This document shows positions 4,665 to 53,041 of a stretch of DNA of 64,000 nucleotides, one piece after another (positions within the stretch are counted from its first letter, which is position 1; each line of letters opens with the position of its first letter). The notes beneath the pieces are model-generated. The model ran no database searches and had not been told where the DNA came from. It worked only from the letters and a program-made list of their open reading frames with translations. The stretch comes from a virus. The stretch lies in the IMG/VR virus record IMGVR_UViG_3300024348_000005, positions 32,001 to 96,000 of that record; one strand, given 5' to 3'. The position numbers and the translations under genes are program-made.

Positions 4665-6497
4665 ATGGCGAAAAAAATATCATACGCAACTAGAGATTTT
4701 GCGGGACTAAGACAAGAATTAGTTAATTTAACAAACGATTATTATCCCGATTTGGTAAAAAACACCAATGACGCATCAATATTTTCTGTGTTGTTAGATT
4801 TAAATGCTGCGGTTGCGGATAACTTACATTTTCATATTGACAGAGTTTTTCAGGAAACGATTTTAGATTTTGCACAACAAAGACAATCTTTATTTCATAT
4901 TGCTAAAACATATGGTATTAGAATACCAGGTGTAAGACCATCGGTGGCACTATGTGATTTTTCAGTTAATGTTCCGGTTCGTGGTGATAAAGAAGATGAA
5001 AGATATTTGGGAATTTTAAAAGGTGGAGCTCAAGTGTCAGGCGGAGGTCAGATATTTGAAACAATAGAAGATATAGATTTTTCTAATCCATTTAACAGTA
5101 AAGGAGAACCAAATAGATTAAAGATTCCAAATTTTGATAGTAACAATAGTTTAATATCATATACAATTACAAAAAGAGAGGCGGTAGTAAACGGAGTAAC
5201 AAGAATTTACAGAAGAGTAATCAATCAAGTTGACCAAAAACCATTTTTAAAACTTTTTTTACCAGAACAAAATGTTTTAGGTGTTGTTTCTATAATACAT
5301 AAAGATGGTACCACATTTGGAGCTAATCCAACATCAACAGAATTTACAACGTCAACCAATAAATGGTACGAAGTAAAATCGTTAATGCAAGATAAAGTGT
5401 TTATACCAAACACCACAAGTGTTTCAGATAAAAACAATTTCAAGGCAGGAGATTATGTACCAGTATCAAATAAGTTTTTAACCGAATATACTCCTGAAGG
5501 TTATTTTTCATTAACCTTTGGTTCAGGAACGGTTGACCCATTAGATAACTTGGATAACTACATTACTAGCAACATGAAAGTAAACATTGCTAGTTTTTTA
5601 AATAACATGTCGTTAGGTACAGTACCTAAAGTAAACTCAACAATATTCGTGAAATATCGAATTGGTGGGGGTAAAGATTCCAATTTAGGAGTTAATGTTA
5701 TAACAAGTGTGGATAGTGTCGAATTTAACATACAAGGTCCAAATTCAACTATTAACACACAGGTTGAGGATTCATTATCTGTGACAAATATCACACCAGC
5801 AATTGGTGGGGCGGACCAACCAACAATAGAAGAAATAAGAAATATGGTTGCTTATAATTTTGCAGCACAAAACAGAGCTGTAACGTTAAATGACTATAAA
5901 TCTTTAATAGAAACAATGCCATCTACATTCGGAGCACCGGCAAAGGTAAATGTGATGGAAGAAGATAATAAGGTAAGAATCAAATTATTATCATATGACG
6001 AAAATGGTAGTTTAACTGACACTGTATCCAATACATTAAAAAATAATATTTTAAATTATCTTTCTGAGTTTAGAATGATTAACGATTATTTGGATATTGT
6101 GAGTGGTGAGGTTATTGATATGGGTTTAGAAGTTGATTTAGTTATAGATAAAAATACATCACAAACAGACGTTATTAAGACGGCAATCGAAAATATTGTA
6201 GATTTCTTTGCAATTGAAAAACGTAAAATGGGAGATCCACTATTTGTTGGAGATTTGTCAAAATCCATTGGTAATGTGTCGGGAGTTGTGAACGTTGTAG
6301 ATTTAAGAGTTTTTGGAAAAATTGGTGGAGAATACTCATCATCCGAGGTTTCACAAAGTTACAAAGACAACGCAACGAAAGAAATACAACAAAGCGACAA
6401 CACTATATTCATGAAGTCAAATCAAATATTCCAAATTAGATTCCCTAATAAGGACATTAAGATAAGAATTAAAACCTTAGGAACGACTACATTTTAA
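4665..6497 (+). CDS. Baseplate wedge subunit (T4 gp6 / baseplate J-like)
   Basis: YATRDFAGLRQEL N-terminus, FGSG, YRIGGG and GGAD...AQNRAVTLNDY motifs; follows gp25. Confidence 0.85.
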   Translation: MAKKISYATRDFAGLRQELVNLTNDYYPDLVKNTNDASIFSVLLDLNAAVADNLHFHIDRVFQETILDFAQQRQSLFHIAKTYGIRIPGVRPSVALCDFSVNVPVRGDKEDERYLGILKGGAQVSGGGQIFETIEDIDFSNPFNSKGEPNRLKIPNFDSNNSLISYTITKREAVVNGVTRIYRRVINQVDQKPFLKLFLPEQNVLGVVSIIHKDGTTFGANPTSTEFTTSTNKWYEVKSLMQDKVFIPNTTSVSDKNNFKAGDYVPVSNKFLTEYTPEGYFSLTFGSGTVDPLDNLDNYITSNMKVNIASFLNNMSLGTVPKVNSTIFVKYRIGGGKDSNLGVNVITSVDSVEFNIQGPNSTINTQVEDSLSVTNITPAIGGADQPTIEEIRNMVAYNFAAQNRAVTLNDYKSLIETMPSTFGAPAKVNVMEEDNKVRIKLLSYDENGSLTDTVSNTLKNNILNYLSEFRMINDYLDIVSGEVIDMGLEVDLVIDKNTSQTDVIKTAIENIVDFFAIEKRKMGDPLFVGDLSKSIGNVSGVVNVVDLRVFGKIGGEYSSSEVSQSYKDNATKEIQQSDNTIFMKSNQIFQIRFPNKDIKIRIKTLGTTTF

Positions 6498-6551: not shown

Positions 6552-9500
6552 ATGCTACAAAAACACAGAATATACACAGATATTGGTAAAGACCAAAACA
6601 TCACAGTCGAATTAAAACAAGACTATGATTTATTGGAAATCTTATCTTTAAAGTTTACACAGAAAGACACGTATACTTCACTTTGTTCAGATTACGGTGT
6701 TGTGTGTGGTAGAATCATTGTTAATAATGGTTTTGGGGTACCAAACGCAAGAGTTTCTATATTTGTCCCATTATCGGACGAAGATTCGACAGACCCCGTA
6801 ATTTCGGCTTTATATCCATATAAAGACCCATCAGAAAGAAACGAAGAAACAAATTACAGATATAATTTATTACCGGCAAGAAAACAACACGGAGGACACG
6901 AACCAACTGGAACATTTCCCGACCAATTAGAAGTTCTCAATAGAGAAGAGGTATTGGAAGTTTATGAGAAATATTATAAGTACACGGTTAAGACTAATGA
7001 ATCTGGTGACTTTATGATATGGGGAGTTCCGTTAGGATTACAAAAACTTCATGTTGATTTGGATTTATCGGACATGGGTTGTTTTTCACTAAGACCCGAC
7101 GATTTCATTAGACAAGGAGTTGGATTAGACCAATTTAAAACATCATACGCATTTAAAGCATCTGAAGATATTGATTCATTACCCCAAATCGTTTCATTTG
7201 ATAAGACGGTTGAGGTTGTTCCATTTTGGGGTAATGTTGACTTATGTCAAATAGGAATTACAAGAACGGATTTTGATTTATCAGATAAGGGAGTAAAAAT
7301 TGAACCAAAGGCAATTTTATTAGGGTCAGTATTTTCCGACCAAGGAAACAACACGGTTAATAAAAATTGTACACCAAGAGGTGGTATGGGTAATAAGTGT
7401 GGTCTTATTACCGAACCGGCAACAGTAGAAATATTAAGATTTACAAACAAGAAAGATAGTAACAATCGACCAATATTGGAACTAATGGAAACTAGTGAAG
7501 ATGTTGATGATAGTGGTTCATTTATGATTTCGGTTCCTATGAACATGGAGTTTGTTTACACAAATGAATTCGGTGAGAACGAAATTACAAACGACCCAAA
7601 TAAGGGTATTCCAACATCTGCATGTTATAGATTTAGAGTATCCACAAAAAATGAGTCATTAGGTAGAGTAAGAACAATCGGTTCTTATTTAATACCAAAT
7701 ATTAGGGAATATGCAACTACCGATTCGGAAATTGATAAGTCATATACTTGGTCAACAAATTGGAATGATTATCCATTGGGAGCGTTAAATGATAATATTC
7801 TTTTTAATAACGTCAACGGATCATATTATCCACAAGATTATTTTTATAGATTTAATTATAATAAAATTTATAGTGTATCGTCATTTCTTGGTTCACACAG
7901 TAATGGGAATTTAGGAATCACACAAATTGCACCAAAGGAGGAAGACGATTGTCAAAATAATTCACTAACCCCACCAATTAATCACGCGGTACAAACAATT
8001 ACTTTTGCCATTTTATTGGCAATAATATTAAACACGTTTGAAAGATTAATTTATTATGCGTTTATCGCTGCGGTACAGGTTTTAATATTACCGTTTCAAA
8101 CGTTTTATAATTTTAGAATTTATGTAAAACATATTATCGATTGGAGACCGTTTGATTTTTTTGATAAGTTAGTTATCGAACCATTACAAAGATTTGGTAC
8201 GGTTAGATTAGGTATTGCTATATATCCCGAATGTGAAACATGTGATAACTTGGATTATTCAAATGATTTACCAAATACAAGTACCAATCCAGCCGATTTA
8301 TATAATGAAATTGCTACAGGAAGTGCAATTCCGGATAGTTTTATGACAACATATGGTTGTTCAAGTTATACAGATGGAGACGGGGATACAACTAGACTTT
8401 ATTTTAATATACCATCAACCGCATGTTCAGGAACAACAGTTACACCATCCATTATAAGCGGTTATACTTTATCTCAAATATTAACCGATTACACGGGTAG
8501 ATTTATTGTTAAATTTAATAATTCAGGAGAACATACCACATTAAATTTATTTACTGAATCAATAAATGGTATTGATACGTATTATTATGATGATACACAA
8601 ACAGTTAGTTATAGTGGAGGAAATCCACCAACAGGACCACAGGGTTACAAAATATATGATTCACAATCAAGTTTAACTGGAGGTTCAAATACATCAGGAT
8701 TAAGTAGTGAATTAGAAGGTGGATGTCAACAATATGTTACCGTTTATAAAGAATCTATTGTCTATGGAACATATTGTGTTGGTAATGCATCCACACCATA
8801 TAGTGGATTAACATCCACAAACATAACAGCAGGTACTGTTTGTGGTTCTGGTAAAATTGCTGTTGGTCAAGTTATTAGAAATGTTAATAGTAATCCTTGT
8901 GGTACATGTGGTACACACAGTGGTTATTCTGAATTTAGATATGGTTTATTTACAATTATACCGGCCGCAGCAACTCTTAATTGGGGAGATAATTTTGATG
9001 CAATAACTGAATATGCTAGAAGAAAACTTGTTGCTAAAGTATTTTGTGGTGGTATTGCAAATTATAAATTTATTGACAACTGGTTAACAGGTTCATTGTA
9101 TATGTTTCCATTTAAAGCAAAGGTTAGATGGGACGACGAGGCAACATTAGATTTAAATGTTAGAAGAACAAAATATTGTCCTGATTTAGTTTATTTTAAA
9201 GCGGGAACTGTAGAAAATCCAGACAAAAGATTTTACTATAGATCAACATATTTTAATGGTAGTACATTTAGTAGAAGTGATAGAGAAGGATTGGGTCATC
9301 CAACCACCATTGTTGATTTAGGACCAAGAGATGAGTTTATAAAAGAAATATGTACTGACCCATCATTAGACCCAAATTGTTCAGTTGTTAGAGATATTGG
9401 ACCAACATCTTATCAAAATTTTAAAGAGATGTTAGGTTTATACATTAATTATAAATTAGATTATTTGGCAACAGATGGTAGTACAAGTGGTAATTACAAT

Positions 9501-10337
9501 TCGTTTTTTGAAAACAACGGATATAGTGGTTTTGGTACTGTAATGAATGGTGATATCCTTCAACTAATATCAATAAATAATGAAGTTGGTATTGAAGAAT
9601 TCGATTTACAAAATAGAAATTATGCCGCATATAATCCACAAGTGTTAGATGTTGAATCTTATCCAGGATTATTAAATGGTGGACCACTACCGATAAATTT
9701 AGTACTAGACGATGGTGAGGGATATCGAGTTAGAGCTTGTTTAAATGAGCCCGGAAGATTAACAGAATCATCACAAGAAGTTCCATTTTATTTATGGGAA
9801 AAGGGCGGTGACGGAACAAATGGATTCGGTGCTGGAGTTAGTCAACATTGGGATTATGGTAATATTGAAGTACAACCATTACAAGGAATGACTAAAAATT
9901 ACAAGTATACAGGTGATTCCACACACAAATATTTGTTATTACCGATGACAAAACAATATAGTGGTGATACGTTTACATATACTGGTGTAACATATAATGA
10001 TGTGTATGCGGATATTGAAACAACAGGTACAACACATACAACTTATAATAATCAAGAAGAAGGATTCACGGTACTTGAAATTGCTACAGGTACATTAGAT
10101 AATCCATTGACAGGAACACTATGGATTAGAACTGGAGAAACGAGTAATTGGGCATCAAAGGCATGGACAAACGACCTCGACTTTATGGTAAAACCAACAT
10201 CAACAAATTATAACGGAACAAAACAAATACTATCAACACCATTCTTATTTTATTTTGGATTAAGACCCGGTAAGACTGCGATAGATAAACTAATAGAAAA
10301 ATACGGACCAAAGGGTGCGTTCCCATCTGCTGAATAA
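6552..10337 (+). CDS. Large baseplate-region structural protein with an internal hydrophobic segment
   Basis: 1261 aa; N-terminal prealbumin-like beta domain (GRIIVNNGFGVPNARVSIF...TNESGDFMIWGVP); Cys-rich centre; located in the baseplate cluster. Confidence 0.5.
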   Translation: MLQKHRIYTDIGKDQNITVELKQDYDLLEILSLKFTQKDTYTSLCSDYGVVCGRIIVNNGFGVPNARVSIFVPLSDEDSTDPVISALYPYKDPSERNEETNYRYNLLPARKQHGGHEPTGTFPDQLEVLNREEVLEVYEKYYKYTVKTNESGDFMIWGVPLGLQKLHVDLDLSDMGCFSLRPDDFIRQGVGLDQFKTSYAFKASEDIDSLPQIVSFDKTVEVVPFWGNVDLCQIGITRTDFDLSDKGVKIEPKAILLGSVFSDQGNNTVNKNCTPRGGMGNKCGLITEPATVEILRFTNKKDSNNRPILELMETSEDVDDSGSFMISVPMNMEFVYTNEFGENEITNDPNKGIPTSACYRFRVSTKNESLGRVRTIGSYLIPNIREYATTDSEIDKSYTWSTNWNDYPLGALNDNILFNNVNGSYYPQDYFYRFNYNKIYSVSSFLGSHSNGNLGITQIAPKEEDDCQNNSLTPPINHAVQTITFAILLAIILNTFERLIYYAFIAAVQVLILPFQTFYNFRIYVKHIIDWRPFDFFDKLVIEPLQRFGTVRLGIAIYPECETCDNLDYSNDLPNTSTNPADLYNEIATGSAIPDSFMTTYGCSSYTDGDGDTTRLYFNIPSTACSGTTVTPSIISGYTLSQILTDYTGRFIVKFNNSGEHTTLNLFTESINGIDTYYYDDTQTVSYSGGNPPTGPQGYKIYDSQSSLTGGSNTSGLSSELEGGCQQYVTVYKESIVYGTYCVGNASTPYSGLTSTNITAGTVCGSGKIAVGQVIRNVNSNPCGTCGTHSGYSEFRYGLFTIIPAAATLNWGDNFDAITEYARRKLVAKVFCGGIANYKFIDNWLTGSLYMFPFKAKVRWDDEATLDLNVRRTKYCPDLVYFKAGTVENPDKRFYYRSTYFNGSTFSRSDREGLGHPTTIVDLGPRDEFIKEICTDPSLDPNCSVVRDIGPTSYQNFKEMLGLYINYKLDYLATDGSTSGNYNSFFENNGYSGFGTVMNGDILQLISINNEVGIEEFDLQNRNYAAYNPQVLDVESYPGLLNGGPLPINLVLDDGEGYRVRACLNEPGRLTESSQEVPFYLWEKGGDGTNGFGAGVSQHWDYGNIEVQPLQGMTKNYKYTGDSTHKYLLLPMTKQYSGDTFTYTGVTYNDVYADIETTGTTHTTYNNQEEGFTVLEIATGTLDNPLTGTLWIRTGETSNWASKAWTNDLDFMVKPTSTNYNGTKQILSTPFLFYFGLRPGKTAIDKLIEKYGPKGAFPSAE

Positions 10338-12106
10338 TGGAAAAGAAAAAAATAATATTACCAACCAAGAGATTCTTCAAGGCAGAAGAGGAAGACTTAG
10401 ATTTAAGATTAAATTTAGATTCTTCTGAAAATTTAATGCGTCTTGGTGACAGAGATGTTGTTTTAGATATTGCACAATTATTTAGTGATGAAAGAAACGA
10501 TAGTAAGAATTATAAAATATATGGTAAATTAAAAATGATTTTCAGAAATATGTATTCTGGAAGTACAACATACGAACCATTACAAAAAAATCTTTATTTA
10601 AGTGGTGATGGAAGTGATAATAATTTCGATGGATTTTTACCTTATAATGAATTAGCGTTTTTAAGAAACGATGTTTTAAGAGAAATATACGTACCGTTAA
10701 GTGGAACATCACCAACTTTTGGTGTAACAACAATTTTAACAGGAACAACTAATACAGGTCATACGGTTACCACATCGATTACGGCACCATATAAAAATTG
10801 GAACATATATCTAAGTTATGTACAAAGTCACAATAGTTTGTTCCCAATGAAATATAGTTTATCAGGATCAACTGCGGGTGAAACAATAAGTTTTACATCG
10901 GGTGATGGTATTCCATTTAGATTATCATATTCAGGTGGTTCTTATTATGAATTAACTTCACCTGTTGAACATGGAATGAAATCTGGGGAGTTTGTTGTAT
11001 TATCAGGAACAACATTAACAGGAAACGTTAGTGGTAGAACATTTACAATTGATAGTGTTGGTAATGAGGTTCACAATTCAGAAAAATATGTAATTAATTT
11101 ATTAAAGAGTCAAATTTTAACAGGAACAACAATACCATTATTAACTGTTGGTAAAAGATGTTTAAATAGAAATGATATTACAGGTACAACATCACAATAT
11201 TATGTTCATCAACATAAAACATTAACAGATTCTACGAATTATATTTTAGATAAAATTGGTTTTGAAACCCCAATATGGGAAGACGAAAGAAAACTATTAA
11301 TTGAAAATTCAAATGGTGATAATGACGTATTAGTTGAAAGAAATAGAATGGAATCTTTAATATATGATTTTAAAGAACCATTAATATTAACAGGAATAAC
11401 AAATAATTTAGGATACACACCAACAGATGTTTATTTAACTGTTATATATAGAAACTCAAACGGATTTTTTAATTACCCACCAAAAGTTGGATGGAAATTT
11501 AATTTTCACAATACTTGGATTGATAAACATTTTAGTGGTACGACATCAAATGAAACTAAAATAACTACAACGTCTTTTACTAAATCAGGTTTTACATTTT
11601 ATAGTGGAAATTCAATCACAATAGGTACTACCGGATTAACGGGTGCATATGTTGAATATAATAAAACCGAATTAAAGGAAAGAATTATAAGTGAAGCATA
11701 TCATAAGATATCAAATCCAATAGCAACATTTGACCACAATCAAGATGGTAATGTTGATGGATTTTCAGGAGCAACCGCCGAAAATCTATTTGGTTTATAT
11801 TATCAACCATATCATAAGGTAAAATTAAAAGAATTGTCTCCATATGTTGAAACATCAAAAACAAACGACATTATAAACTTACCTGAAAATACAATGTATT
11901 TTGAAAAGGAAGGGTTATGGAAATGGAGAGATTTATATGACCATGGATATATTGACCCCGATGGTTATGGTGTTAATCATCCATTTATAAACAATATTCA
12001 TTATGTAAAAAATGATATTAATTTCTATTTAAGAAATGAGAGATTATACCAAAATAAAACTGACGGATTGACAAACTTCAACGATAAAACAATAACCGAC
12101 TGTTAA
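10337..12106 (+). CDS. Putative structural protein
   Basis: 589 aa, TAATG-coupled to both neighbours, rich in [ST]GxT. Confidence 0.5.
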   Translation: MEKKKIILPTKRFFKAEEEDLDLRLNLDSSENLMRLGDRDVVLDIAQLFSDERNDSKNYKIYGKLKMIFRNMYSGSTTYEPLQKNLYLSGDGSDNNFDGFLPYNELAFLRNDVLREIYVPLSGTSPTFGVTTILTGTTNTGHTVTTSITAPYKNWNIYLSYVQSHNSLFPMKYSLSGSTAGETISFTSGDGIPFRLSYSGGSYYELTSPVEHGMKSGEFVVLSGTTLTGNVSGRTFTIDSVGNEVHNSEKYVINLLKSQILTGTTIPLLTVGKRCLNRNDITGTTSQYYVHQHKTLTDSTNYILDKIGFETPIWEDERKLLIENSNGDNDVLVERNRMESLIYDFKEPLILTGITNNLGYTPTDVYLTVIYRNSNGFFNYPPKVGWKFNFHNTWIDKHFSGTTSNETKITTTSFTKSGFTFYSGNSITIGTTGLTGAYVEYNKTELKERIISEAYHKISNPIATFDHNQDGNVDGFSGATAENLFGLYYQPYHKVKLKELSPYVETSKTNDIINLPENTMYFEKEGLWKWRDLYDHGYIDPDGYGVNHPFINNIHYVKNDINFYLRNERLYQNKTDGLTNFNDKTITDC

Positions 12107-13665
12107 TGAAAATTTTATCTAATACAAATGATTTAACAATATCCATGAACATGGAACAAGATTTTAAAACAGATCTTGGTTGGGAAGAAGGTGCTCTTCA
12201 AATGGAAGAACAAATTCTAAGTGAAATCATTAATCCAATTGAAAATTATGAGACCGTTAGATATATTCACAAACCTTATGATGTAACAAAAAGTGGTACA
12301 ACATTTCAACAAACCGACATATGGTTTAGTTTTTATTTTTTAAATGGGTCAACATATGTTAACGATTATGAACCAACGGGTCTTTCTAATAAAGAAAATG
12401 CTTTAATGTTAAAACAAACCGTTAAAAGTTTTTTTAGATTAGAATTTTTTAAAACGCCAAATAGTGTAAAACCAGATAGAACAAATAGAAAATTAGTTTT
12501 TGCTAAAAATTTATCGTTACCATTGGGAGAAAAATATTTCCACACCACACTCAACGATTACATATTCTTACCTGTTTTTATGGGATCAAACTATAGAAAT
12601 AAAGAAAACATGTATTTGTTTTGGTTTCAGGATGAGAGTCCATTTAGTGGAACAACAATAACAGGAAACACATTTTGGATGACCGCAAAGTTTTATAATG
12701 CGGAAGATGGTAGTATAAGTGATTTTGTTAATAAACCAAATTTTACAGATGTGGTTTCTGATGGTAGAATTGGTAAGAGTGGAAACCCAATTAAGTTTTA
12801 TGAAAAAAATAGTATATCGGGTTATACTGAATATGAAGATTTATATTATAAAGTAACAATTGATAAAAGTGATTATTCATATATGGTTGAAAGGGATGTT
12901 CAGAATGACATAACCCTTACCCCAACACCAACACCTGCAACCCCTACCCCCACACCAACAACCGGAGGTGGAGGAGCAACAAACACCCCAACACCAACAG
13001 CAACCCCTACACCGACACCAACAGCAACCCCTACACCGACACCAACAGCAACCCCTACACCGACACCAACAGAAATAACTTTAATATTTACCGCAACTGT
13101 TGATAATACACAATACGGTGAGCAACCACCAAATAATATTGTAACGGTTACAGTAGAATCAAGTAGTAGTGCGGTAGGAACATATCTTTGGTGGGGTAAA
13201 AAATCTGGAACCGCCACAACAGCAGAGTTTACTAACCTTAATACCGCAATGTTAATTACCGCATCTACGGGACATACCTTTGAATTAGTAATAGATGACG
13301 ATGAAACTACTGAAACAGATCAAACATTTTCTGTTGCCATCTTTACAGGGTCATCAACCAACGCTGGTGGAGAAGTTGCATATACATCCACATTTACAAT
13401 ACTTGATGATTCTATAGCCCCACAATATAGATATGCAATATTAGAAAGAATAAAAGATTATAATGGAGGCCCTTGTGATTTGGCTGGCAATAATTTAACA
13501 AATTATTATTGGGATCAAGTAAATGACGGTATCCTTGATGGTAGTGACCAGTTATGGAGTGGTGCGGGATATTGTTATAGAGTTGTTTCATTTACCAACG
13601 ACACTAACGAATTAGGTAATACTCAAATTAGCGATGCGTCAAAAAATAACTGTCCATCATGTTAA
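12106..13665 (+). CDS. Putative structural protein with PT linker and appended Calx-beta-like and Cys-rich domains
   Basis: Core of about 265 aa, PT repeat, then DDDETTETDQTFSVAI...FTILDDS (Calx-beta-like) and a Cys-rich tail. Confidence 0.5.
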   Translation: MKILSNTNDLTISMNMEQDFKTDLGWEEGALQMEEQILSEIINPIENYETVRYIHKPYDVTKSGTTFQQTDIWFSFYFLNGSTYVNDYEPTGLSNKENALMLKQTVKSFFRLEFFKTPNSVKPDRTNRKLVFAKNLSLPLGEKYFHTTLNDYIFLPVFMGSNYRNKENMYLFWFQDESPFSGTTITGNTFWMTAKFYNAEDGSISDFVNKPNFTDVVSDGRIGKSGNPIKFYEKNSISGYTEYEDLYYKVTIDKSDYSYMVERDVQNDITLTPTPTPATPTPTPTTGGGGATNTPTPTATPTPTPTATPTPTPTATPTPTPTEITLIFTATVDNTQYGEQPPNNIVTVTVESSSSAVGTYLWWGKKSGTATTAEFTNLNTAMLITASTGHTFELVIDDDETTETDQTFSVAIFTGSSTNAGGEVAYTSTFTILDDSIAPQYRYAILERIKDYNGGPCDLAGNNLTNYYWDQVNDGILDGSDQLWSGAGYCYRVVSFTNDTNELGNTQISDASKNNCPSC

Positions 13666-13681
13666 TCTCAATAATAGTTAA

Positions 13682-14863
13682 ATGAAAAAGAATAGATACG
13701 AAATATTAAGAAAAAACATTGTTAGTGGATCTTTAGTGTCAACAACAAGTCAAAATTGGTATGACAGCAATGGTGATTTAACACCGTGGTCAGGTAGTAT
13801 TTACATCGGACCAAACATCGGAGATGGTATATATAATTTCACGGGTAGTGTTGATAATAAATATTCAAGTAACGTTACCCAAGGTCATTACAAATGGAAC
13901 GGAACTACTTGGATTTCAACACCACTGAGTGGATTATCTGAAAGTTATAATCTACCGGTATTTTTAGAAAGTACGGTAGATGAGATGGGCGTTATGGTTG
14001 GATTTGACGGTGCAATTGAACAAATGGAACAACTTGTTAATTTCTCATATACTCAAACAGGTTCCACAATACAAGTTTATAGTACGGTTAATCCCGATAA
14101 ACTTAGAAAAATTGTTGAACAAACATATACAATTAATTGGGGTGATGGATTAATTTCAGGACTAACAGTTAATGGTGGTGTTGTTGGACAATCTTTGCCA
14201 TCACTTTCACACATATACGCAGCACCTTCAGGATACACTATAACAATAACATTAGATGCACCGTGGACTAAACAAAAATTAAGTAAAAAGATTACAGTTC
14301 CAAGAAATACCACAATAACAAACTCATTAGGTTCTTTTACAGGAACAACGGTACCAGCATATTCAAACCTAACAGGACAAACTCAAAATTACCTAAATGA
14401 CCTTGATATTACAAACAACACGGGTTATACTACAACAGGTTTCACATATATGGCGGTTGGTGGTAGTAGGTTAGATGAATTAAAAAAATACGGTTCAACG
14501 GGATATACCCAAACTTTAACAAGCGGTTCTTCTCCCGACTTAGTTAAATTTACGGGTTACACATTTACATACACCGGTAATACAACTGGTACCACCACAT
14601 TACAATATAGAGACTATGAGGATGGTTATACCATGATAACAGGGTCAACAACAGGATTTACAAAAGAAGAAGTATTCAATAAGATTTTAACAAGAAACGA
14701 ACATTTTTTAGGATTTATTGATGAACCAACAATTTATTCTGATTTATTTGTTGAAAGGGGTAAACAAGGTGTTATGGAAATTAACCTCAGATTGGGTGAA
14801 ATTGATAACGTTGGTGAATTGGATATCTATGGAAATGGATATTTTAACGTAAGAAAACAATAA
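13682..14863 (+). CDS. Putative structural protein with PKD-like domain
   Basis: YTINWGDG...SHIY...YTITIT PKD signature; [ST]GxT-rich. Confidence 0.5.
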   Translation: MKKNRYEILRKNIVSGSLVSTTSQNWYDSNGDLTPWSGSIYIGPNIGDGIYNFTGSVDNKYSSNVTQGHYKWNGTTWISTPLSGLSESYNLPVFLESTVDEMGVMVGFDGAIEQMEQLVNFSYTQTGSTIQVYSTVNPDKLRKIVEQTYTINWGDGLISGLTVNGGVVGQSLPSLSHIYAAPSGYTITITLDAPWTKQKLSKKITVPRNTTITNSLGSFTGTTVPAYSNLTGQTQNYLNDLDITNNTGYTTTGFTYMAVGGSRLDELKKYGSTGYTQTLTSGSSPDLVKFTGYTFTYTGNTTGTTTLQYRDYEDGYTMITGSTTGFTKEEVFNKILTRNEHFLGFIDEPTIYSDLFVERGKQGVMEINLRLGEIDNVGELDIYGNGYFNVRKQ

Positions 14864-14888
14864 AAATTATATTTATTATTAAAAGTAT

Positions 14889-15806
14889 ATGGCAGTAGGT
14901 AGTTACGGAATAATTAGACCCGCAGATGTGTCACCAGATGATGTAGAAATATTTTATCACTACGTTTCAGGAAGAACGTCAACCGCACCGGTTTCTCTAA
15001 AAACTTTAAACAGTTCTAGTGTTTTGACACCAGTTTATCATGGTAATGATACTACAGATGATACAAACGCCCCAAATTTGGAAGTTTTAGGAGGATTATA
15101 TAATTTAAAATTAGAATCTGCGGATTTCACGGACTTAGGAATATATACACTTCATGTAAGACCAAAACAAATAAGAACTACAATTACAGATTGTGGTGTG
15201 TTGGCGTCATTACCTTCAGTAAGAGGTTTAGTTATAGATTTAAGTAATGTTCCTTCTGGTGACAGAAGTAAATTTACCCCTCAAGGATTAATTGGATATA
15301 GAATAGAATATATAAACACTGAGAACAAAAAAGTAACAAACTTCTATAGATTAGTTACTTCATCGTTTTATTGTACACCTGTGGTTTCTAATTTATCTAG
15401 TACAACACAAAAGGCGATTAGATATCAATATAGTGATGCTGCAACGAATATGTTGTTTTTAACAGTAACACCATCGTCCGCACCATCAAGTAAACCAAAC
15501 ACAATTCCATTTATCGGTACACCGGGTCAAAAAATTATTTTTACCAATACATTTTTTAACCCAACAACGATTGAGGTTGAAATGGTTGAACATGACGCAT
15601 CAACATTGGCACATGCATTATATGGTAATCAAAGTAAGGCGGTTACACCGGGTATTTACACAATTTACGATAACAATAACAATATCTATAAACAATACAA
15701 CTTATACGAAATCAAAGACGACGTTAACGAAACATTATACGAAGTTAGAGAGAAGAGAACAGATATTGATGAAACTTTAAATTTTGATACAATTACCGAA
15801 TTATAA
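14889..15806 (+). CDS. Conserved-type hypothetical structural protein
   Basis: 305 aa ORF with upstream TATTTATT, coupled to the next gene. Confidence 0.45.
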
Positions 15807-18800
15807 TGGCAAAATATAAAGTTCCAAGTCAGGCGGCTAATGGATCACAAACTTTTAGTGACAACTTAATCGGAGTTCAAATCACCGATGGTACTAGCCA
15901 ATTGACCAATACGAACTTTGCTCTTGATAAAACAATACCTGAAAGGGACGCTAAAAATTTTAAAACAAATCCGTTTTCGGATTTTTTAACTTTAGACGAT
16001 TTAAAAATTGAAGAGTCCGCTCCAATCACACAATCTAAATTAGAAAAAAATCAATCAGTTAAATTTAGAGATTCAAAAAAAGATTCAGGAAAATCATTAT
16101 ATGGTTCATTAAAAAGTAGAATTGGAGTCGCGGTTACAAAAATTATTAAGTTTTTTCCTGCCTCGGTTATGGTTGATATCGACTCACCAAAGAGTCAAAG
16201 TGGTCTAACTGCGTATAACATAACATATAATCAAAATACAAAAAGAACTAGATTAGATATTGAATTAGGAATGTTTTACAATCCATTCGATATTCTTTTT
16301 ACAAAACCAAATACAAACACAGTTGTTACTGTTGATAACCCAATTAGAAATTTCTATTCATCATATAAAAAATATGTAATTGAATTAAGTGGTGTTACAT
16401 ATAATATTGTTAGTTATGTTGAACCTAATACAAAAAATAAAATAACTCTAACGGTTTTAGGTAATCCATTCAATGGACAAACAACAACCACTAAAAATAT
16501 TTTAATTAGACCAAACGATGGTGTAAAGGAAGAATTTTTTATAGGACTTGATGATTTAGAATCATCATTATTAAATAGAGAAACACTACCAATTTACCAA
16601 TCAACATTTAAAGTACCAAGAGATATTAAGAATGGTTCGGTAACGAGTTTGTTAGATGTAAAATACAATTGGCCAATATCAAAAGACAATTACAATTTAC
16701 AAATTGTAGGTATTGGATATGATGAATATATTAATAATTTAATTGATGTTGCAGATGAAATTGATGAATATAAGTCTAACTTATTAGTTAGATTTTTATC
16801 TTCACCACAATTATTTGAATTTGATAGTGATGACAAAAAAGCGGAGTCTGTATTTCAATTATATGGACAAAGTTTTGACAAGGTAAAAAAATATATAGAC
16901 AATATTGCTTACATGAGAAATGTAAGTTATGATGGAGTTAATAACCTACCCGACATATTATTAAAAAATTTATCTAACACTTTAGGTTTAAGTACAATTA
17001 ATCTTTTTGATGAAAAGGATTTAAATGAACTTTTATATACAAGAACAGATACACAATATTCAGGATTAACGGTAGGAACCACTATCGTTGACGCAGAAAA
17101 TGAATTTTACAGAAGATTATTAGTTAATCTTTCATACATATACAAATCAAAAGGTACAAGGTCTTCAATTGAATTCTTTTTGAAATTCTTAGGAGCACCC
17201 GAACCTTTAATTAAGATTGATGAGTACGTCTATAATATAGTTTCATTACCAAAGTCATTTAACATTGATAGTGAAATTAGAAGTGTGATTATGGGTGATA
17301 AAACTGATTTAATAATTTCAGGATTCACACCGTCAACATATTCATACTCAACAGGTACAACATTAGCATCAACAACATACACTAGAGAGGAATACCCTGT
17401 TACAACTGACGGTTTACCAAGAGGATACAGTAGTGTTACTAATAATAATTTCTTTCAACAAGGTTCTGGTTGGTACGACATGACGTTAGACCATAGGTCT
17501 TCAACAACGTTAGATATTGAAAACTCAACAACAACAGGTAGAACAAAAACAATAAAAACAAAAAACAAACCATACACATATGGTGAAGAATATTTTGATA
17601 TTTTTAGATCATTACCGGGTTTAGATACGGGATTTGAAATCGTAAGTAAAGTTGACAACAATCAAAAACAAATTGTCAACAACAATTCAACTTTAATTCT
17701 TAATAGAAAAAATATTAGTGTTTATCTTTCATCCGCTAATGTGATGGATTTTGACATATATCGTAAATCTAGAGATTTGGAATTGTCATTTGGTTCTAAC
17801 ACATTGTTACCACAAACAGGTTATACGTTTGCTGAGTATGTTGATAGAATGTTACATGACCAAATTAGAAATTCACATGTAATAAAGTACAAAAAGAATT
17901 ACATCACCTTAGAGGATATACACCAAGATTATATTACTAATAGTAATTTTACTCCATATAATTTTCCAAGTGTAAATGAATTTGTAAATAAAATAGGACC
18001 ATATTGGACGCAGGTTTTAGACCAAGTAATCCCATCAACTACTTTATGGACAGGTGGTAACCTAATTCAAAATGGTATTTTTGGTAGACCAAAATATTCT
18101 TATAGATTTGGATGTAAACCAAAAGAAATTATTGAGAATGTTTATCCGAAACCAATTACATCGGGATATCAACCATTTCAAGATGAAATTGAACAATTTG
18201 ACGAATATTATGAATTTTCAACAGAAATAGATGAAACGGGTGAATCATCACATGATGGATATATAAGATTTTTTCCAACGTTTGAATTAGATGGTGTTTT
18301 GTTTAGTGGTAGTTCAAATAACTCAAGTACATATGTTTTAATATCAGGTAGCACACCAACAGCGACAAGTGCAAGGTTATATACAGGTAATGGAAATGAA
18401 ATTATTACAAATAATCCAAGTTTATACTCAAATGACTTTAATCAAATAAAACAATTATGGAAAAATGCAATAACAGGAACAACCGAATATATTAATACAT
18501 GTACCGATTGTTTATATTCTAGTTATACAACGGATTTATTTGGTAGAAACAATGAATATGCTGACGAAATTAGTTATTCAGGAATTTCAGGTTCAACACA
18601 GTATTTTAATGATTTTGGATATAGTCAAGGGTATGTTCCACTTCTAAAAAGTATTCGTAAAAAATTATTAACAGTTTCTTTTTTTACCGATAATAATGGT
18701 GAAGAAAAAATGAAAGTGACTTCGTTTTCGTATGGTCCAAATGATGGTACAATATGTAAAAGTTTTGTATTTGGTTTAGATGGTTTTGGTGATAATGATG

Positions 18801-21019
18801 CGTTTGATTGTAGATTTAGTGGTGGTACCGCGGTATATATTCCTGGACCAACTCCTACACCAACTGCAACTCCTACTCCTACCCCAACACCAACACCTAC
18901 TGCGACACCAACGGCAACACCAACACCAACCCCAACCCCTACACCGACTCCTACCGCAACACCAACGGCAACACCAACACCTACCGCAACACCAACGGTA
19001 ACTCCTACCCCTACACCTACTCCAGAATGTAACTTCGATGTTGAAGTAATTGTTGTAACGAATACACCAACACCAACTCCTACACCAACGCCAAATTGTA
19101 ACTTTGATGTAGAGGTAATTGTAGTAACTAACACCCCTACACCGACTCCTACTCCAACGCCAGATTGTAACTTCGATGTGGAGGTAGTTATTGTTACCAA
19201 CACACCAACACCAACCCCAACCCCTACACCAGATTGTAACTTCGATGTGGAAGTCGTTGTAGTAACGAACACCCCTACACCTACACCAACCCCTACACCA
19301 GATTGTAACTTCGATGTTGAAGTAATTGTTGTAACGAATACACCAACACCAACCGCAACACCTACGGAGACGCCAACTCCGACACCAACCGCAACACCAG
19401 ATTGTAACTTCGATGTTGAGGTAATTGTGGTTACAAATACCCCTACACCAACACCAACCCCAACTGAAACTCCTTTGGATTGTAATTTCGATGTTGAAGT
19501 AATTGTTGTAACAAATACCCCGACACCTACTCCAACCGCAACACCTACGGAAACACCAACACCAACCCCAACAGTAACACCTACACCAACTGCAACTCCT
19601 ACACCGACTCCTACACCAACTGCAACCCCAACTGCAACCCCTACTCCTACACCAGATTGTAACTTCGATGTTGAGGTAATTGTGGTTACAAATACACCAA
19701 CTCCAACTCCAACACCAACTGCAACTCCTTTGGATTGTAACTTCGATGTTAAGGTAATTGTGGTTACAAATACGCCAACTCCTACACCGACTCCGACGCC
19801 TGAAACACCTACTCCAACCCCTACCGCAACACCTACACCTACGCCAACACCTGAGACCCCAACTCCTACACCTACACCAACCGCAACTCCAACTGCAACA
19901 CCAACTGCAACACCTACCCCTACACCAACCGCAACTCCAACTGCAACACCAACTGCAACACCTACCCCTACTCCGGAATGTAATTTTAATGTTGAGGTAA
20001 TTATTGTTACAAATACTCCTACCCCAACTCCTACACCTACACCAACCGCAACACCAACTGCAACTCCTACACCTACACCAACCGCAACACCAACTGCTAC
20101 ACCGACACCTACACCAACTGCGACCCCAACTCCTACACCAACACCGGCAACACCGACACCTACACCGACTCCTACACCAACTGCAACCCCTACACCAACA
20201 CCAACAGTGGACGCTAATTTCTATTTCTTAGCAGAAAGATATGAGTGTTTAGAAAATGGTAGTTGTAGTTACGTTGAGGATGTGATTGTAATGAACCCTA
20301 TAGATTTATCAATTCACCCATCGTCGCCTCGTTACAGGTTAGACCCTACAACAGGATATATTTTAAGAATAATAACAGAGGTGTCGCCACAAATTGCATT
20401 AATTACAAATATGTCAGGAGGAGGTAGTGCAATCTGTAGTGCTTATTGTGATCAACCAACCCCAACTCCTACCCCAACACCTACACCTGCTACTCCTACC
20501 CCAACTCCTACACCTGCAACGCCTACCCCAACACCAACACCATTACCTGGTTCAGGGTATTATAATGGCGGATATGGTTGTCAATTCTATACTTATGACC
20601 CTGGATTCCCAACTTGTGATCCAAATGCCACTCCAACACCAACACCAACATTAACTCCGATATCACAATGTACACAATTAAATTGGTCATTTAGTGAAAT
20701 GAACGGAGCACAGGGTGTATTTGAGTTATATGTAAACTCAATACTTGTAGAAAGTAGAGCGTCAACTTCAAATGGAAGTTACACGGTTTGTCTTAATGAT
20801 ACAATAGAAGTTGAGGTGTTCTGTAATGCATGTGAAGATTCACCAAATGTACATTCAAACGCGTATTCAACATCTGATAAATTTGTATTAACAGACGCCG
20901 CGTGTACTCAGAATGGTACTGCATCTATGATAACAGGAACTTATACTGTGGTATCGGGTGATATTGGAACACCGTTTAGTGTAAATACATTCGCCGAATG
21001 TGAATATGGATGTTTATAA
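15806..21019 (+). CDS. Large baseplate (gp7 / P2 gpI-like) protein with PT-linked peptide array
   Basis: [14 protein letters not shown] motif of tail-I/gp7-like proteins; C-terminal PT repeats with ten [11 protein letters not shown]-type units. Confidence 0.55.
18848..20205 (+). repeat. Coding Pro-Thr repeat tract with ten [12 protein letters not shown] units
   Basis: In-frame repeats with synonymous variation; minimal period 69 bp. Confidence 0.95.
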
Positions 21020-21108
21020 AATACATTATCAATAAAAAATATAGAAAACTCTTTTTCCATAAAAAATAAAACAAAATAAACAGATATTTATAATAAAAAA
21101 AAGAAAAC

Positions 21109-21639
21109 ATGCAAGTAACATTTTATCTAACTCAGGCGTCAGCAAATACCGCCGCTGGACCTTTTAACATATCAGGAACAACATCGGGAGGTGCTGCGAA
21201 TACTGTAGAAATACAGGCGGGAGTGTCAAAGTCAACATTACTAGCGGGTTATACCGAAGAAATTGCCAATAACATAACAGGAGGTACCGTTACAAGTACA
21301 GGTGCAACATGTAACACAACTGATACATGGAGTATTAATGAATTGTATGTTACACCAACCCCAACCCCATCACCTGTACCATATGCTGAATATACCGGTT
21401 CTGGTTATGGAAGTAATGTTGGATCCGCATGTAACGATGCATCAACGGCCAATGGTGGTCTTGGTAGAACATTATATTCAGATTGTGAATCTTCCGAATT
21501 TGGTGTTAATTGTTATGTTTATTCAGACGATTTCGGTAATGCATTAACTGGATACAATAATGTATTCATGCACGCATCAAATTGGGATATTAGTTCGGTG
21601 ACAGGAAGGATAACCGCACTATCGTCAGAGCAATGTTAA
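21109..21639 (+). CDS. Small two-module virion decoration-type protein with PT linker
   Basis: N module, TPTPTPSP linker and Cys-bracketed C module; own TATTTATA motif and terminator. Confidence 0.5.
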   Translation: MQVTFYLTQASANTAAGPFNISGTTSGGAANTVEIQAGVSKSTLLAGYTEEIANNITGGTVTSTGATCNTTDTWSINELYVTPTPTPSPVPYAEYTGSGYGSNVGSACNDASTANGGLGRTLYSDCESSEFGVNCYVYSDDFGNALTGYNNVFMHASNWDISSVTGRITALSSEQC

Positions 21640-21665
21640 TTGGTGATTTAAAACTATACAATTTT

Positions 21666-21693
21666 AAAACCCCTTTATTATAAGGGGTTTTTT
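21666..21693 (+). terminator. Intrinsic terminator
   Basis: AAAACCCCTT-TATTAT-AAGGGGTTTT plus T tract. Confidence 0.8.
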
Positions 21694-21725
21694 ATTTAAT
21701 TTATATCTAACAGTATTTATAGTAT

Positions 21726-23093
21726 ATGTCATTTTCAGTTAGAATAAGTGGAGTTACAATTGGGTTGTCGATATTAAACGTCAACATACAAGCCTGTTCC
21801 GATATAAACGGTTCAGTTGGATGTACAACCGTTGTAACAAACGTTCCGAGAGCGGGATTTCCGATGTTTGTTGATGTACCCGATAATACATATTCAGTAA
21901 AATTAGTTGCGTCGAATATTAATGATGGGGAAGATAGTAATGGAAATCTTTGTTCACCATCACCATTGGTAATTGCATTAAATAACAGACCAACACCGAC
22001 ACCTACAGCAACACCAACACCTACACCAACACCTACACCAACAGCAACACCAACACCAACAGCAACACCTACACCAACAGCAACACCAACAGCAACACCA
22101 ACAGCAACAGCAACCCCTACACCAACCCCAACACCAACGGCAACTCCTACACCAACACCTACGCCAACACCTACACCAACAGCAACGCCAACACCAACAG
22201 CAACTGAAACACCATATTATTTACAATTAAGTCGTTGTGATTCTGCACCAAACACAGTTACTGGTTGGACACTGAATACTTATACACAATCACAAATAAT
22301 GGTTGGTAATATATTCTTATCAGCCGGTGGTTACTATTATCAAGTTATTAACTATCAAACAGCACAACCAAACCCAGCGGGAATTATAGATGGTACTAAA
22401 GCGGGAGCACAATATCAAACATGTTCCGACACGCCTGGAGCCTATGTGGAACCACCAGATAATCCTGGTGTTAGTTTATTAATACATACTGGTCAAACAT
22501 TCAATAATAGTAGTACACCTTGTGCTATGTACGAGTCATCAATTGCAACAAATAGTGGTACAGTATACTTAAGTGGGCATACAATACCAGCAAATGGTGA
22601 CTACGCGTACACAACTGCGGTTTGTAATGAAACATATGCCGGAGATTCAAACTATTATGCTTCTCTTGCGAATAGTAGTAGATATGCGTTTACAATTGGA
22701 AGTGGTGGATATATTAATAACGTTGTTCAATGTGGTGTAATACCAACCGCAACGCCAACGCCAACCCCTAGTCCAACACCTACATCGGTAGTGTTATATG
22801 GAATATTTAGATCTACAGGATTATCGACTTTTAATGGTCATTGTAATAACAACTATGTAACCAATGCTCAATTCTATGGTCAAACAACATCACCTAATAG
22901 TTTATATGGAACCATTGTGTATGCAGATACAGAATATACACCATTTGACGGTGGTAGTTTATGGTATGCTTTAGGTAATGATAGTCAATCTAATACAAAT
23001 GATTTACCATACTATTCAATACAAATCATTAGTACTGGTGAGGTAACTAGTGTACAATATTTAACAAGTTGTTCTAGTGGTTCTCAAGCATAA
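21726..23093 (+). CDS. Multi-module PT-linked, Cys-rich virion decoration-type protein
   Basis: N module, long PT/AT linker and three Cys-bracketed modules. Confidence 0.5.
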
Positions 23094-23118
23094 AATAAAA
23101 AAAAGATATTTATAACAT

Positions 23119-25266
23119 ATGAGTTTTTTAAACAATAACAATTCAGAATTCTTATCCGCAAGGATAACCCAAAAGGGTAGAAATGCCATTGCTAAAGGTA
23201 GTTTCAATATAGAATATTTTCAAATTGGTGATTCTGAATTTGATTATAACACAGTGTTCTCAACACTAACAGGTCAAACGACACATCAAAAAGTAATGTC
23301 ACCTTTTGACAAAGAAAGTGGTATAAAGTATCCTATTAAATTAGACTCATCAACAAATACGACAACATATGGTGTACCTGTTTTAAATCCAAACAACGAA
23401 CCAACACCAATAAGAAATGACATGGGACCGGCTGGGTTTGTCACAAATTATAGTGGAGGAACCCCAAGTGTTGAATGTAAAACACAATCAATATCCTATA
23501 CAAAATTAAGTGGATCAACAGGTTTAGATGTATTAACTGGTAGTACCTTTCAAAATTGTGAATATATCACTTTAGTGTTTGATACATTTGGAACAAATAA
23601 TGTTATTACAGGTAAAACAAATAGTTTAGTTTACAAAGTTCTTAGTATTAGTGGTAACACATTAAACTTAGACAGAAACATAATTAACCTTTCAACATTA
23701 AGTGGTAACGTTCAAGTTGTCTGTAATAATTGTGAACAAGAATACCCAATTGAATTGGACATATATGATGTGAGTGGTTACATGTTAGAACCAATTAATC
23801 AAACACAACAATTAAATTCGTGGACAATGAATACCGTTTGGACACAAAAACCAATCGGTGCAGATTATAACGGTACAGATGAAACATTAGCGGGATATGA
23901 CGGTAATCAATATGTTTCAACAAAAGAATTATTAGGATATACCTCAACAGGACAAACGTTCGTTCCTTTTAATGGTTTATCAACAAGTGGAATTACAATT
24001 ACAGGGACAACATACAAAAATTCATTTGATGAATTAATAGAAGTGACACCATCAGAACAAAGATGTATAGCAATAATTCATTATTCTGAGTTGGGTGATT
24101 TAAGATACGATACAGAAAGATTTTATAAGTACGATGATTATATAAGTCACAAAACAGGAACCACAAGTTCTGATATATCAATTGTAGAAGATTATGATAG
24201 AGAAAATGATTTAAGAGATTTAAGTGATAGTGAATATTTTGAAATTTATATTCCTTTCATTTATTATCATAGAAATACGGGTACAACAATGGGTGCAAGA
24301 TTCTTTATGGATACCACAGACTATTATGTAAAATCAACAAAGAACGCCAAACATCAATTACTATTTAGATTTTTAGTTGACGAACAAAACAACAAAGTAG
24401 GTAAGGTATTTGTAAAAAATAAAATCGTTGTTTTTGATGACCAAGAATTAGTTGCAATATTAGATTACAGGTCTAACAGAAAATATACATTACCCGCACC
24501 AAAAATATCGACAGTTCCAAGTGATACTGTAACCGCAAACTCATTATTAACATCAACAGGACAAACCGCCTACGTTACTTATGTTTTTGCCAATACAAGT
24601 GGAACAACGATGAATGCTTTACCTTGTAATTATTATTCTAAAATTACAGGAACAACAACACCTTCACAGGTTACAATGAAATTTAGTGGAAACACTTCCT
24701 TTAATACTTTAAAAACTTCATTTTCAGGTGTTACTGACGGATTTGTTGCGGATAAATTTTATGCCTTAGTTCAAGTTTCAACAGGAACAACAACTAATAG
24801 TTCAGATTGGAAGGCAATTGATTTAACAACAAGTGCAATTAAAACAAATGGTTTTATAGATCCGTCGAAAATTACAGGAACAACATTCACATTATATTAT
24901 TCAGGTTACACGGCAGCATCTATCTTCGATTTGGAAGATCATATGTCGGGAGTTAGTTCTAATTATTTAGGAACCTCAGGAGCAACTGACTATAACGTAA
25001 CAACACCACAATTTGGTGACGAACAACCATTCCCCGGTAGTATTAGATTTGTAAGGGCGACGGATGTTGAACAACTTAACTTTTTAGTTAATCTACCCTC
25101 AAGTACATTTACCACATCACAAAACCCATCTTACACAAGTGGATATCCGGTGATTACAGAAATTGCTTTATTAGATTCCAATAAAGAACCTTTGGTTGTT
25201 GGAAAACCATCATATCCAGTTAAAAGAATTGGAGCTCAAGTATTTGCTATCAAATTAGACTTCTAA
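23119..25266 (+). CDS. Tail/baseplate structural protein (tail-fibre attachment-like termini)
   Basis: ARITQKGRNAIAKG..FQIGDSE N-terminus and ITEIALLDSNKEPLVVGK..IKLDF C-terminus resemble tail-collar/fibre anchor proteins. Confidence 0.55.
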   Translation: MSFLNNNNSEFLSARITQKGRNAIAKGSFNIEYFQIGDSEFDYNTVFSTLTGQTTHQKVMSPFDKESGIKYPIKLDSSTNTTTYGVPVLNPNNEPTPIRNDMGPAGFVTNYSGGTPSVECKTQSISYTKLSGSTGLDVLTGSTFQNCEYITLVFDTFGTNNVITGKTNSLVYKVLSISGNTLNLDRNIINLSTLSGNVQVVCNNCEQEYPIELDIYDVSGYMLEPINQTQQLNSWTMNTVWTQKPIGADYNGTDETLAGYDGNQYVSTKELLGYTSTGQTFVPFNGLSTSGITITGTTYKNSFDELIEVTPSEQRCIAIIHYSELGDLRYDTERFYKYDDYISHKTGTTSSDISIVEDYDRENDLRDLSDSEYFEIYIPFIYYHRNTGTTMGARFFMDTTDYYVKSTKNAKHQLLFRFLVDEQNNKVGKVFVKNKIVVFDDQELVAILDYRSNRKYTLPAPKISTVPSDTVTANSLLTSTGQTAYVTYVFANTSGTTMNALPCNYYSKITGTTTPSQVTMKFSGNTSFNTLKTSFSGVTDGFVADKFYALVQVSTGTTTNSSDWKAIDLTTSAIKTNGFIDPSKITGTTFTLYYSGYTAASIFDLEDHMSGVSSNYLGTSGATDYNVTTPQFGDEQPFPGSIRFVRATDVEQLNFLVNLPSSTFTTSQNPSYTSGYPVITEIALLDSNKEPLVVGKPSYPVKRIGAQVFAIKLDF

Positions 25267-35957: not shown

Positions 35958-36251
35958 ATGAAAAAGTTAATTGAATTAATAAAAACATATAAACTACAGA
36001 TACTGATTTTTTTAACAATCATATTCTTTTTTCGCTCTTGTAGTAATTCAAGTAAAGTGAGTAAATTAGAAAAAATTCAAAAACAAAATGTATCTATGAT
36101 TGATAGTCTTAAAATCACACATAAAAACGAAAAAATAGCAATTCACGGTTTTTATGATAATTGGATTACACAAAAAGATAGAGGACCACAGTTAATGGAA
36201 CTACATTTTATTGTTAAAGAAAACTTAAAAAAAGAACAAGAATCTAAATGA
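35958..36251 (+). CDS. Small membrane or lipoprotein-like protein
   Basis: Hydrophobic helix ending FFRSCSNSS. Confidence 0.5.
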   Translation: MKKLIELIKTYKLQILIFLTIIFFFRSCSNSSKVSKLEKIQKQNVSMIDSLKITHKNEKIAIHGFYDNWITQKDRGPQLMELHFIVKENLKKEQESK

Positions 36252-50229: not shown

Positions 50230-50243
50230 TAATTATATAGTAG

Positions 50244-51122: not shown

Positions 51123-51168
51123 TTCAAAAATAAAGTATTTATATAAATAAAAAGAACAACAAACGCAA

Positions 51169-52950: not shown

Positions 52951-52969
52951 TTAATTAAAATTAAAATAT

Positions 52970-52997
52970 AAAGGGAACTCAAAAGGTTCCCTTTTTT
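52970..52997 (+). terminator. Intrinsic terminator
   Basis: AAAGGGAAC-TCAAAAG-GTTCCCTTTTTT. Confidence 0.8.
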
Positions 52998-53041
52998 ATT
53001 AAATTCTATTTATTTAAACTATTTTTTTGTGTATTTATAGA

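Follow-up and report, generated by a model that had tools for sequence, protein, structure and literature searches.

General O-glycosylation in Bacteroidota uses the sequon D-(S/T)-(A/I/L/V/M/T) and acts outside the cytoplasm, whereas virions assemble inside it. The N-x-S/T sequons of eukaryotic viruses lie on exposed surfaces, and in BclA, of the Bacillus exosporium, Thr is the acceptor within glycosylated collagen-like Gly-x-Thr repeats. Among tailed phages, mycobacteriophage virions are O-glycosylated by phage-encoded glycosyltransferases (Freeman et al., 2023, Cell Host Microbe, as cited in PMC12619734). Here we describe a tetrapeptide, [ST]-G-x-T, that recurs in the outer virion proteins of an uncultured jumbo myovirus and may be a recognition tag of a related kind. 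The DNA analysed (the window) spans 64,000 nucleotides of low GC content (about 31-37%), positions 32,001 to 96,000 of the IMG/VR record IMGVR_UViG_3300024348_000005.

In this freshwater phage, the motif occurs in proteins of the outer tail, baseplate and fibres about seven times more often than expected by chance. We number the Ser/Thr as position 0, so that Gly is +1 and Thr is +3, and give counts as [ST]GxT over all [ST]G in the same protein; for the virion proteins of the window, expectations come from 5000 composition-preserving shuffles per protein. Ten virion proteins together contain 90 [ST]GxT, against 15.0 ± 3.8 in shuffles (shuffle maximum 33). With Pro-Thr (PT) tracts masked, the motif stands at 7.1 times expectation (z 22.5). 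NrdA (1700-4129) has 0/7, and the remaining 31 listed open reading frames (ORFs; non-structural or inner) contain 46 [ST]G and a single motif. The gp6-like inner baseplate wedge protein (4665-6497, + strand), with 0/4, is an internal negative control among the virion proteins. An initial annotation of this DNA, based on hand counts, had proposed that the motif is enriched in virion proteins. Its counts for NrdA and for the proteins encoded from 23119 (20/26) and 13682 (13/18) were reproduced exactly, the enrichment persists against shuffles, and the comparison of structural with non-structural proteins limits the excess to the former.

The carriers, named here by their first nucleotide, are all encoded on the + strand. 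The richest is the product of 23119-25266, a conserved protein of 715 residues from the baseplate/fibre region (z 15.7), whose motifs hold 38 of its 93 Thr and 21 of its 50 Gly; it has no Pfam or PHROG match. Two further baseplate-region proteins are strongly enriched: that of 13682-14863 (393 residues, z 10.3), with a PKD-like domain at about residues 120-215, and that of 10337-12106 (589 residues, 13/21, z 13.1). Directly 3' of the gp6-like wedge gene, 6552-10337 encodes 1261 residues with 7/25 (z 4.2); these motifs are confined to residues 626-751 and 1137-1194, with none in the first 600 residues. The products of 12106-13665 (519 residues, 5/11) and 15806-21019 (fibre-like, 1737 residues, 11/25) each reach a z of about 4 and contain, respectively, two (TP)n linkers and seven (TP/TA)n linkers of 12-64 residues. 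A fibre protein of 593 residues (51169-52950) has 13/28 (z 7.4), a count that comes partly from a repeated, β-solenoid-like vTGxT...G unit. The initial annotation had called the motif frequent in these last five proteins, as we find, and also in two small proteins encoded within 21109-23093. The latter, of 176 residues (21109; 3/8, z 2.8) and 455 residues (21726; 4/9, z 2.0, with a 72-residue PT linker), are weak when taken singly. The 14889 protein likewise has no individually convincing excess, its z lying within the range of 1-2.8 that it shares with these two.

The motif has a sharply defined grammar. Thr occupies +3 after 58% of TG and 47% of SG dipeptides. With any other residue before Gly the figure is about 10%, and the coupling disappears when Ala, Asn or Asp stands in place of Gly. 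Permuted and near-miss patterns overall lie at 0.5-1.9 times expectation, including the reverse pattern TxG[ST], which has the same composition (1.4 times). Codons within the motif are mixed: Ser is encoded by AGT and TCA, Gly by GGA and GGT, and Thr by all four codons. This mixture at every motif position indicates selection on the protein and rules out a DNA-level signal.

An artefact of composition, repeats or DNA sequence might be suspected from the Thr-rich carriers and the repeated unit in the 51169 protein. The shuffles preserve composition, other Thr-rich proteins show no such coupling (see below), the codons are mixed, and BLASTP returned zero mutual matches among the 6552-25266 proteins, in agreement with the earlier claim that the carriers are not repeats of each other. 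We therefore give an artefact next to no weight. Hidden repeats or shared domains were also rejected as an explanation, the only links being weak PHROG 15511 matches that join the 12106, 15806 and 21726 proteins. Tandem clustering of the motif into mini-mucin patches is not significant (9 close pairs versus 7.6 expected).

We found no excess in several comparison sets. In the T4-like phage RB32, 23 virion proteins have 13/163 (expected 12.9). Microcystis phage Mel-JY01, the nearest cultured relative by its sheath (33% identity over 66%), has 6/100 in its virion region (expected 6.8), 27/371 in the whole 150 kb read (expected 23.4) and 0/7 in the sheath itself. The motif is thus not a general property of myovirus tails. 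Twenty large Thr-rich (7-18% Thr) surface proteins of the type IX secretion system (T9SS), from two Bacteroidota genomes, have 162/1168 (expected 165.5), and a general trait of Thr-rich Bacteroidota surface proteins was likewise rejected.

Within the phage lineage the enrichment is kept. Relatives in IMG/VR are mainly freshwater contigs of up to 336 kb, and all of those examined (80 + 34) are enriched. Metagenomes yielded more than 1000 homologues of the 23119 protein, all of them enriched, and cultured phages yielded none. One relative of 316 kb (G001) shares 96% identity with the window in this protein and about 90-93% in DNA. We read three divergent genomes in full, namely G002 (335,630 bp, with completeness judged at 100%), G003 and G004. 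Only about 8 proteins of the G002 proteome are enriched, the remainder having 81 motifs against 62.6 expected. The enriched set comprises orthologues of the window's virion block, two very large proteins of the virion region, a 519-residue protein and the tail sheath. The pattern in G003 and G004 is the same, and the 10337 orthologues are motif-enriched in all three genomes. There is no motif in the tail tube (0/2), TerL (0/3) or the gp6-like wedge (0/4-0/6); the G002 major capsid protein has 3/7. None of the motifs in the three sheaths falls within the conserved C-terminal core; most are in an insert with no counterpart in Mel-JY01, and their positions are not the same across the three. The corresponding sheath domains of T4 face outward.

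Linkers of (Thr-Pro)n, with occasional Ala, accompany the motif in the window. By a strict definition there are ten, of 12-72 residues, in 12106-13665, 15806-21019 and 21726-23093; a looser six-frame scan of the window finds 18 PT tracts totalling 406 residues. They amount to about 60 residues each in G002-G004 and are absent from motif-free relatives. We considered them as a trait that co-varies with the motif and rejected this, because linkers that are abundant in the window and scarce in G002-G004 make an unreliable companion.

Homologues of the carriers show that the motif is gained and lost on conserved folds. The 13682 family, down to 28% identity, has 428 motifs in total against 118 expected, and a few members have none. 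The whole syntenic module around one motif-free 13682 homologue, on a soda-lake brine contig, has 2/26, and the homologous module around another, on contig L112, has 0/5. A TGYT site of the window aligns without gaps to FEYV, VKYE, IHYT or LQYE in motif-free homologues. Across 18 recurrent sites, motif-free proteins align ungapped in two thirds of cases and have Gly at +1 in only 19%. Since the motif-free homologues carry ordinary residues at the aligned sites, these folds do not need the motif. A contig of 26.9% GC (Logan SRR490135 / soda-lake brine 3300000576) carries a baseplate module that is syntenic and homologous to 6552-21019 of the window; Thr is low there (5-7%) and [ST]G nearly absent, and it provides a natural motif-free comparator lineage.

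Sites also shift among motif-bearing homologues. Alignment of 44 members of the 13682 family (mean column identity 24%) gives 51 distinct sites with a maximum occupancy of 45%, figures that loop misalignment may inflate. Motif density is kept while the sites move, as in sequon-like selection. The 23119 family is better conserved; there, about 11 sites are near-fixed and some 20 have been gained or lost, a turnover that loop misalignment may exaggerate. The motif occurs in folds as unlike as a PKD domain, a sheath insert and a fibre solenoid. With sites that turn over and that are absent from sister-lineage homologues, this refutes a fixed turn of one repeated β fold, the explanation that the initial annotation had set against its own.

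The excess is real, acts at the level of the protein, follows a strict three-position grammar and is specific to lineage and compartment; its sites are mobile and dispensable for the fold. These properties fit a lineage-specific reader of a tag better than a generic turn preference. We suggest that this phage lineage keeps [ST]-G-x-T as a recognition tag, in most cases with a hydrophobic residue just before it. The tag would be placed on solvent-facing strand ends and turns of outer tail parts: the sheath's decoration domain, some of the fibres, and proteins at the periphery of the baseplate. Signs of such exposure are indirect, namely the preference for outer over inner proteins and for the sheath insert over its core, and a flank pattern that would turn positions 0 and +3 outward. 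The phage would encode an enzyme, produced late in infection, that reads the tag in the cytoplasm and modifies a hydroxyl, either that of Thr at +3 or that of Ser/Thr at 0. O-glycosylation by a conserved late cluster of glycosyltransferases would be the most plausible chemistry.

For a lineage known from sequence alone, our preferred reading, at somewhat less than even confidence, is a tag that a phage enzyme recognises, with O-glycosylation as its most plausible use. More tentative is the full scheme of cytoplasmic, sequon-directed protein O-glycosylation, in which the late cluster would read hydrophobic-[ST]-G-x-T on the outer tail, perhaps collagen-like Gly-x-Ser too, and so coat the tail in sugar. 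The initial annotation had proposed a recognition sequon, for example for a phage O-glycosyltransferase that coats the particle. This is supported in part: sequon-like selection at the protein level stands, and sugar attachment, enzymatic reading, a glycosyltransferase as the enzyme and the choice of modified residue are what we infer.

Candidate enzymes are encoded elsewhere in the genomes of this lineage. As the initial annotation had noted for the window, profile matches identified no glycosyltransferase among the window ORFs tested. The genome-wide search that it called for yields candidates in G001-G004, with 4-6 GT2 matches each. All three complete genomes share two GT2 genes, and the better conserved of these encodes a 259-residue GT-A protein (69% identity; PF00535, 31.9 bits versus a cut-off of 23.3). 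This gene belongs to a cluster that is syntenic in G001-G004 and comprises genes for a GT-B-like protein (407 residues), dUTPase, PhoH, a 228-residue protein, a second GT-B-like protein (351 residues), the GT-A protein and a sigma-like protein. The 407-residue protein is similar to annotated glycosyltransferases of phi92-like phages. The GT-A and 351-residue proteins have zero tblastn matches in 50,697 cultured phage records, and we found no characterised GT-A relative in the PDB, in cultured phages or, beyond viral clusters, in the ESM Atlas. The complete genome G002 has no ThyA/hydroxymethylase-type gene, so glycosylation of hydroxymethylated DNA bases is no obvious core role of the cluster.

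The same sequon-like behaviour would result if a phage or host enzyme recognised [ST]-G-x-T for phosphorylation, acylation, methylation or ADP-ribosylation, and only circumstantial evidence ties the motif to glycosyltransferases. As a precedent of this kind, a tail protein of a mycobacteriophage is reported to be methylated in a host-dependent manner (PMC13445384). The conserved late cluster of three glycosyltransferases and the PT linkers point instead toward sugars, and we rate another covalent modification as quite unlikely.

Several observations weigh against enzymatic reading of a tag, and against this cluster as its reader. Both GT-B-like genes score under Pfam cut-offs, and the cluster, which sits among nucleotide-metabolism genes, could act in DNA or host-surface glycosylation. 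Glycosyltransferases are core in every motif-bearing genome; the co-occurrence test proposed in the initial annotation is therefore confounded by kinship and carries no independent weight. The motif-free sister lineages were found only as contigs of at most 12 kb, with no complete genome among them. The outer fibre-like proteins 47527 (4/34) and 50244 (2/10) are without enrichment. The flanks of the motif are hydrophobic at -3, -1 (64% of sites) and +4, polar at -2 and +5, and depleted of charged residues and Pro, a regular alternation of the sort that a structural idiom predicts. This pattern would suit a strand, Gly-x, strand geometry in which positions 0 and +3 face outward, and it keeps a structural reading alive. 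Several modelled sites are two-residue hairpin turns, and where the motif is lost in the 23119 family, position 0 becomes mostly Asn or Asp, a turn-like substitution.

The main rival explanation is a lineage-specific structural idiom, in which hydrophobic-[ST]-G-x-T-hydrophobic builds tight β-hairpin or strand-end turns with an exposed Ser/Thr...Thr cross-strand pair, and nothing is attached. Its robust folding would let the idiom spread through fast-evolving outer domains. Such an idiom would account for the flanks, for the replacement of position 0 most commonly by Asn and Asp, and for the N, D or G often seen at aligned positions of motif-free homologues; moreover, every carrier is β-rich. 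It also agrees with AlphaFold2 models, in which site 126 of the 13682 protein and site 178 of the 23119 protein have a strand / two-residue turn / strand form. The 13682 model has a predicted local distance difference test score (pLDDT) of 71 and Foldseek matches to PKD; the 23119 model is poor (pLDDT 53), and a PDB profile search with this protein gave no useful match.

Other features fit this structural explanation less well. Across the confident parts of the 13682 model and the poor 23119 model, motif sites fall in unlike contexts: hairpin tips, strand interiors (159, 291, 320), strand ends and loops. A β-turn or ST-turn preference would be expected to admit Asn/Asp at the cap and a β-branched residue after the turn. 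With PT tracts masked, [ND]GxT is at 0.94 times expectation and [ST]Gx[VI] at 1.2 times, far from the enrichment of the motif itself, while [ST]AxT is at 0.9 and [ST]GxS at 1.9 times. The excess thus tolerates neither Asn/Asp for Ser/Thr, nor Ala for Gly, nor Val/Ile for Thr, and the [ST]GxT grammar is more discrete than turn propensities would yield. A turn required by the fold is at odds with the motif-free homologous modules, and relatives have the strand-like, Gly-free FEYV or VKYE at the TGYT site. The excess is absent from the same folds in sister lineages, from T4-like phages and from Thr-rich Bacteroidota surface proteins, and a structural idiom does not explain why the phage's cytoplasmic β-proteins and those of the inner virion are left out. 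We consider it rather unlikely, if a serious competitor to a modification tag.

Restriction to outer virion parts, lineage specificity and site turnover would also be expected of non-covalent docking or surface chemistry, in which a partner reads the exposed hydroxyl pair beside Gly without any chemistry. Such a partner might be a protein that cements or decorates the particle, a chaperone of its assembly, or glycans, from the host or the environment, to which Thr-rich patches bind, and our data do not separate enzymatic from non-enzymatic reading. Several outer fibres are unenriched, no candidate reader was found, and a four-residue motif at 5-20 shifting sites per protein would be an unusual docking code. 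We regard docking as improbable.

The fibre genes of the window are heterogeneous. The two fibre-like proteins without enrichment (47527-51122) have 900 and 292 residues. The G004 orthologue of the first (1402 residues) has 35/58, against 4/34 in the window, so tagging of one fibre varies between relatives. Three further fibre proteins (53083-64000, + strand), of 665, 1923 and more than 987 residues (the last runs past the window end), contain very long collagen-like (Gly-Ser/Thr-Ser)n tracts. These proteins are depleted of the strict motif, and each triplet of the tracts matches the relaxed form [ST]-G-x-[ST]. The triplets are Gly-Ser-Ser, Gly-Thr-Ser or Gly-Thr-Ala, and the largest protein is 34% Ser and 25% Gly. 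PHROG matches are to collagen-like minor tail and tail fibre families. The tracts lift local GC to about 0.43 and produce long spurious ORFs in other frames.

Gene order in the window runs from NrdB and NrdA through the gp6-like wedge gene (4665) to the unannotated virion block (6552-25266). RuvC, primase and SbcCD genes follow, then genes for a prohead protease, a sigma factor and a methyltransferase, and finally the fibre genes (47527-64000). We also identified a sigma-factor-like protein (35136-35945, phrog_351), an amidase (37856-38470, PF01510), a NusG-like protein (44923-45447, PF02357) and a 457-residue protein with a TacA-like antitoxin domain (36248-37621, PF08681, E 7.8e-6).

This lineage may be that of the 'moraphages', freshwater jumbo phages with predicted Bacteroidota hosts (PMC12619734). 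Moraphage core genes include gp6, sheath, tube, primase, dUTPase, PhoH, a sigma factor and four glycosyltransferase groups, and free-standing antitoxin genes are abundant (PMC12619734). The lineage described here is compatible with these phages in habitat, genome size, predicted host phylum and core gene list. The moraphage paper does not mention a peptide motif, and we found no description of [ST]GxT in the literature. We also identified a 248,233 bp sequence (CBFHJJ010000001.1), binned in a Flavobacteriaceae metagenome-assembled genome, whose NrdA is 82% identical to that of the window. It is probably a related jumbo-phage genome binned together with its host, and its binning gives a weak hint on the host of this lineage. 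In G002, several proteins encoded at 93357-106557 have Bacteroidota-style signal peptides (MKKLL...AQ), and none of them is motif-enriched; two bear cohesin-like, LCCL and C-type lectin domains.

Should the tag prove to be a modification site, it would offer a sequence rule that predicts the decorated parts of an uncultured phage particle, and a short acceptor tag with matching enzymes. It would be the first defined acceptor sequon for phage virion modification, and a sugar coat would explain how abundant lake Bacteroidota phages shield or tune their tail surfaces. Even if purely structural, a single tetrapeptide that takes about 40% of the Gly and Thr in a conserved 715-residue protein, and that is gained and lost across an entire virion module, is a striking case.

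The motif can be compared with several known systems. Like Bacteroidota O-glycosylation, it would involve a short Ser/Thr-centred sequon and the probable host phylum. As the initial annotation pointed out, the sequence differs from the Bacteroidota sequon: where the latter has Asp, position -1 here is hydrophobic, with a charged residue in only 6% of sites, and +1 is always Gly. In addition, the 20 T9SS cargo proteins have no [ST]GxT excess. The Gly-x-Thr unit recalls BclA, and this phage also has collagen-like fibres. Unlike BclA, its motif is isolated, non-tandem and set in globular β-domains, and no homologous enzyme was identified. As with N-x-S/T sequons of eukaryotic viruses, positions shift between relatives while density is kept. 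Residue, chemistry, enzyme and compartment all differ, and the analogy is one of behaviour only. The mycobacteriophage glycans, as the cited account has it, lie on C-terminal extensions of capsid and tail-tube subunits, unlike the candidate tetrapeptides, which are scattered in folded outer baseplate, fibre and sheath-insert domains (tube 0/2 and capsid 3/7 in G002). The systems have in common a tailed phage with its own glycosyltransferases, here the GT-A and two weak GT-B-like proteins of the G001-G004 cluster, whose proposed role is the decoration of virion proteins made in the cytoplasm.

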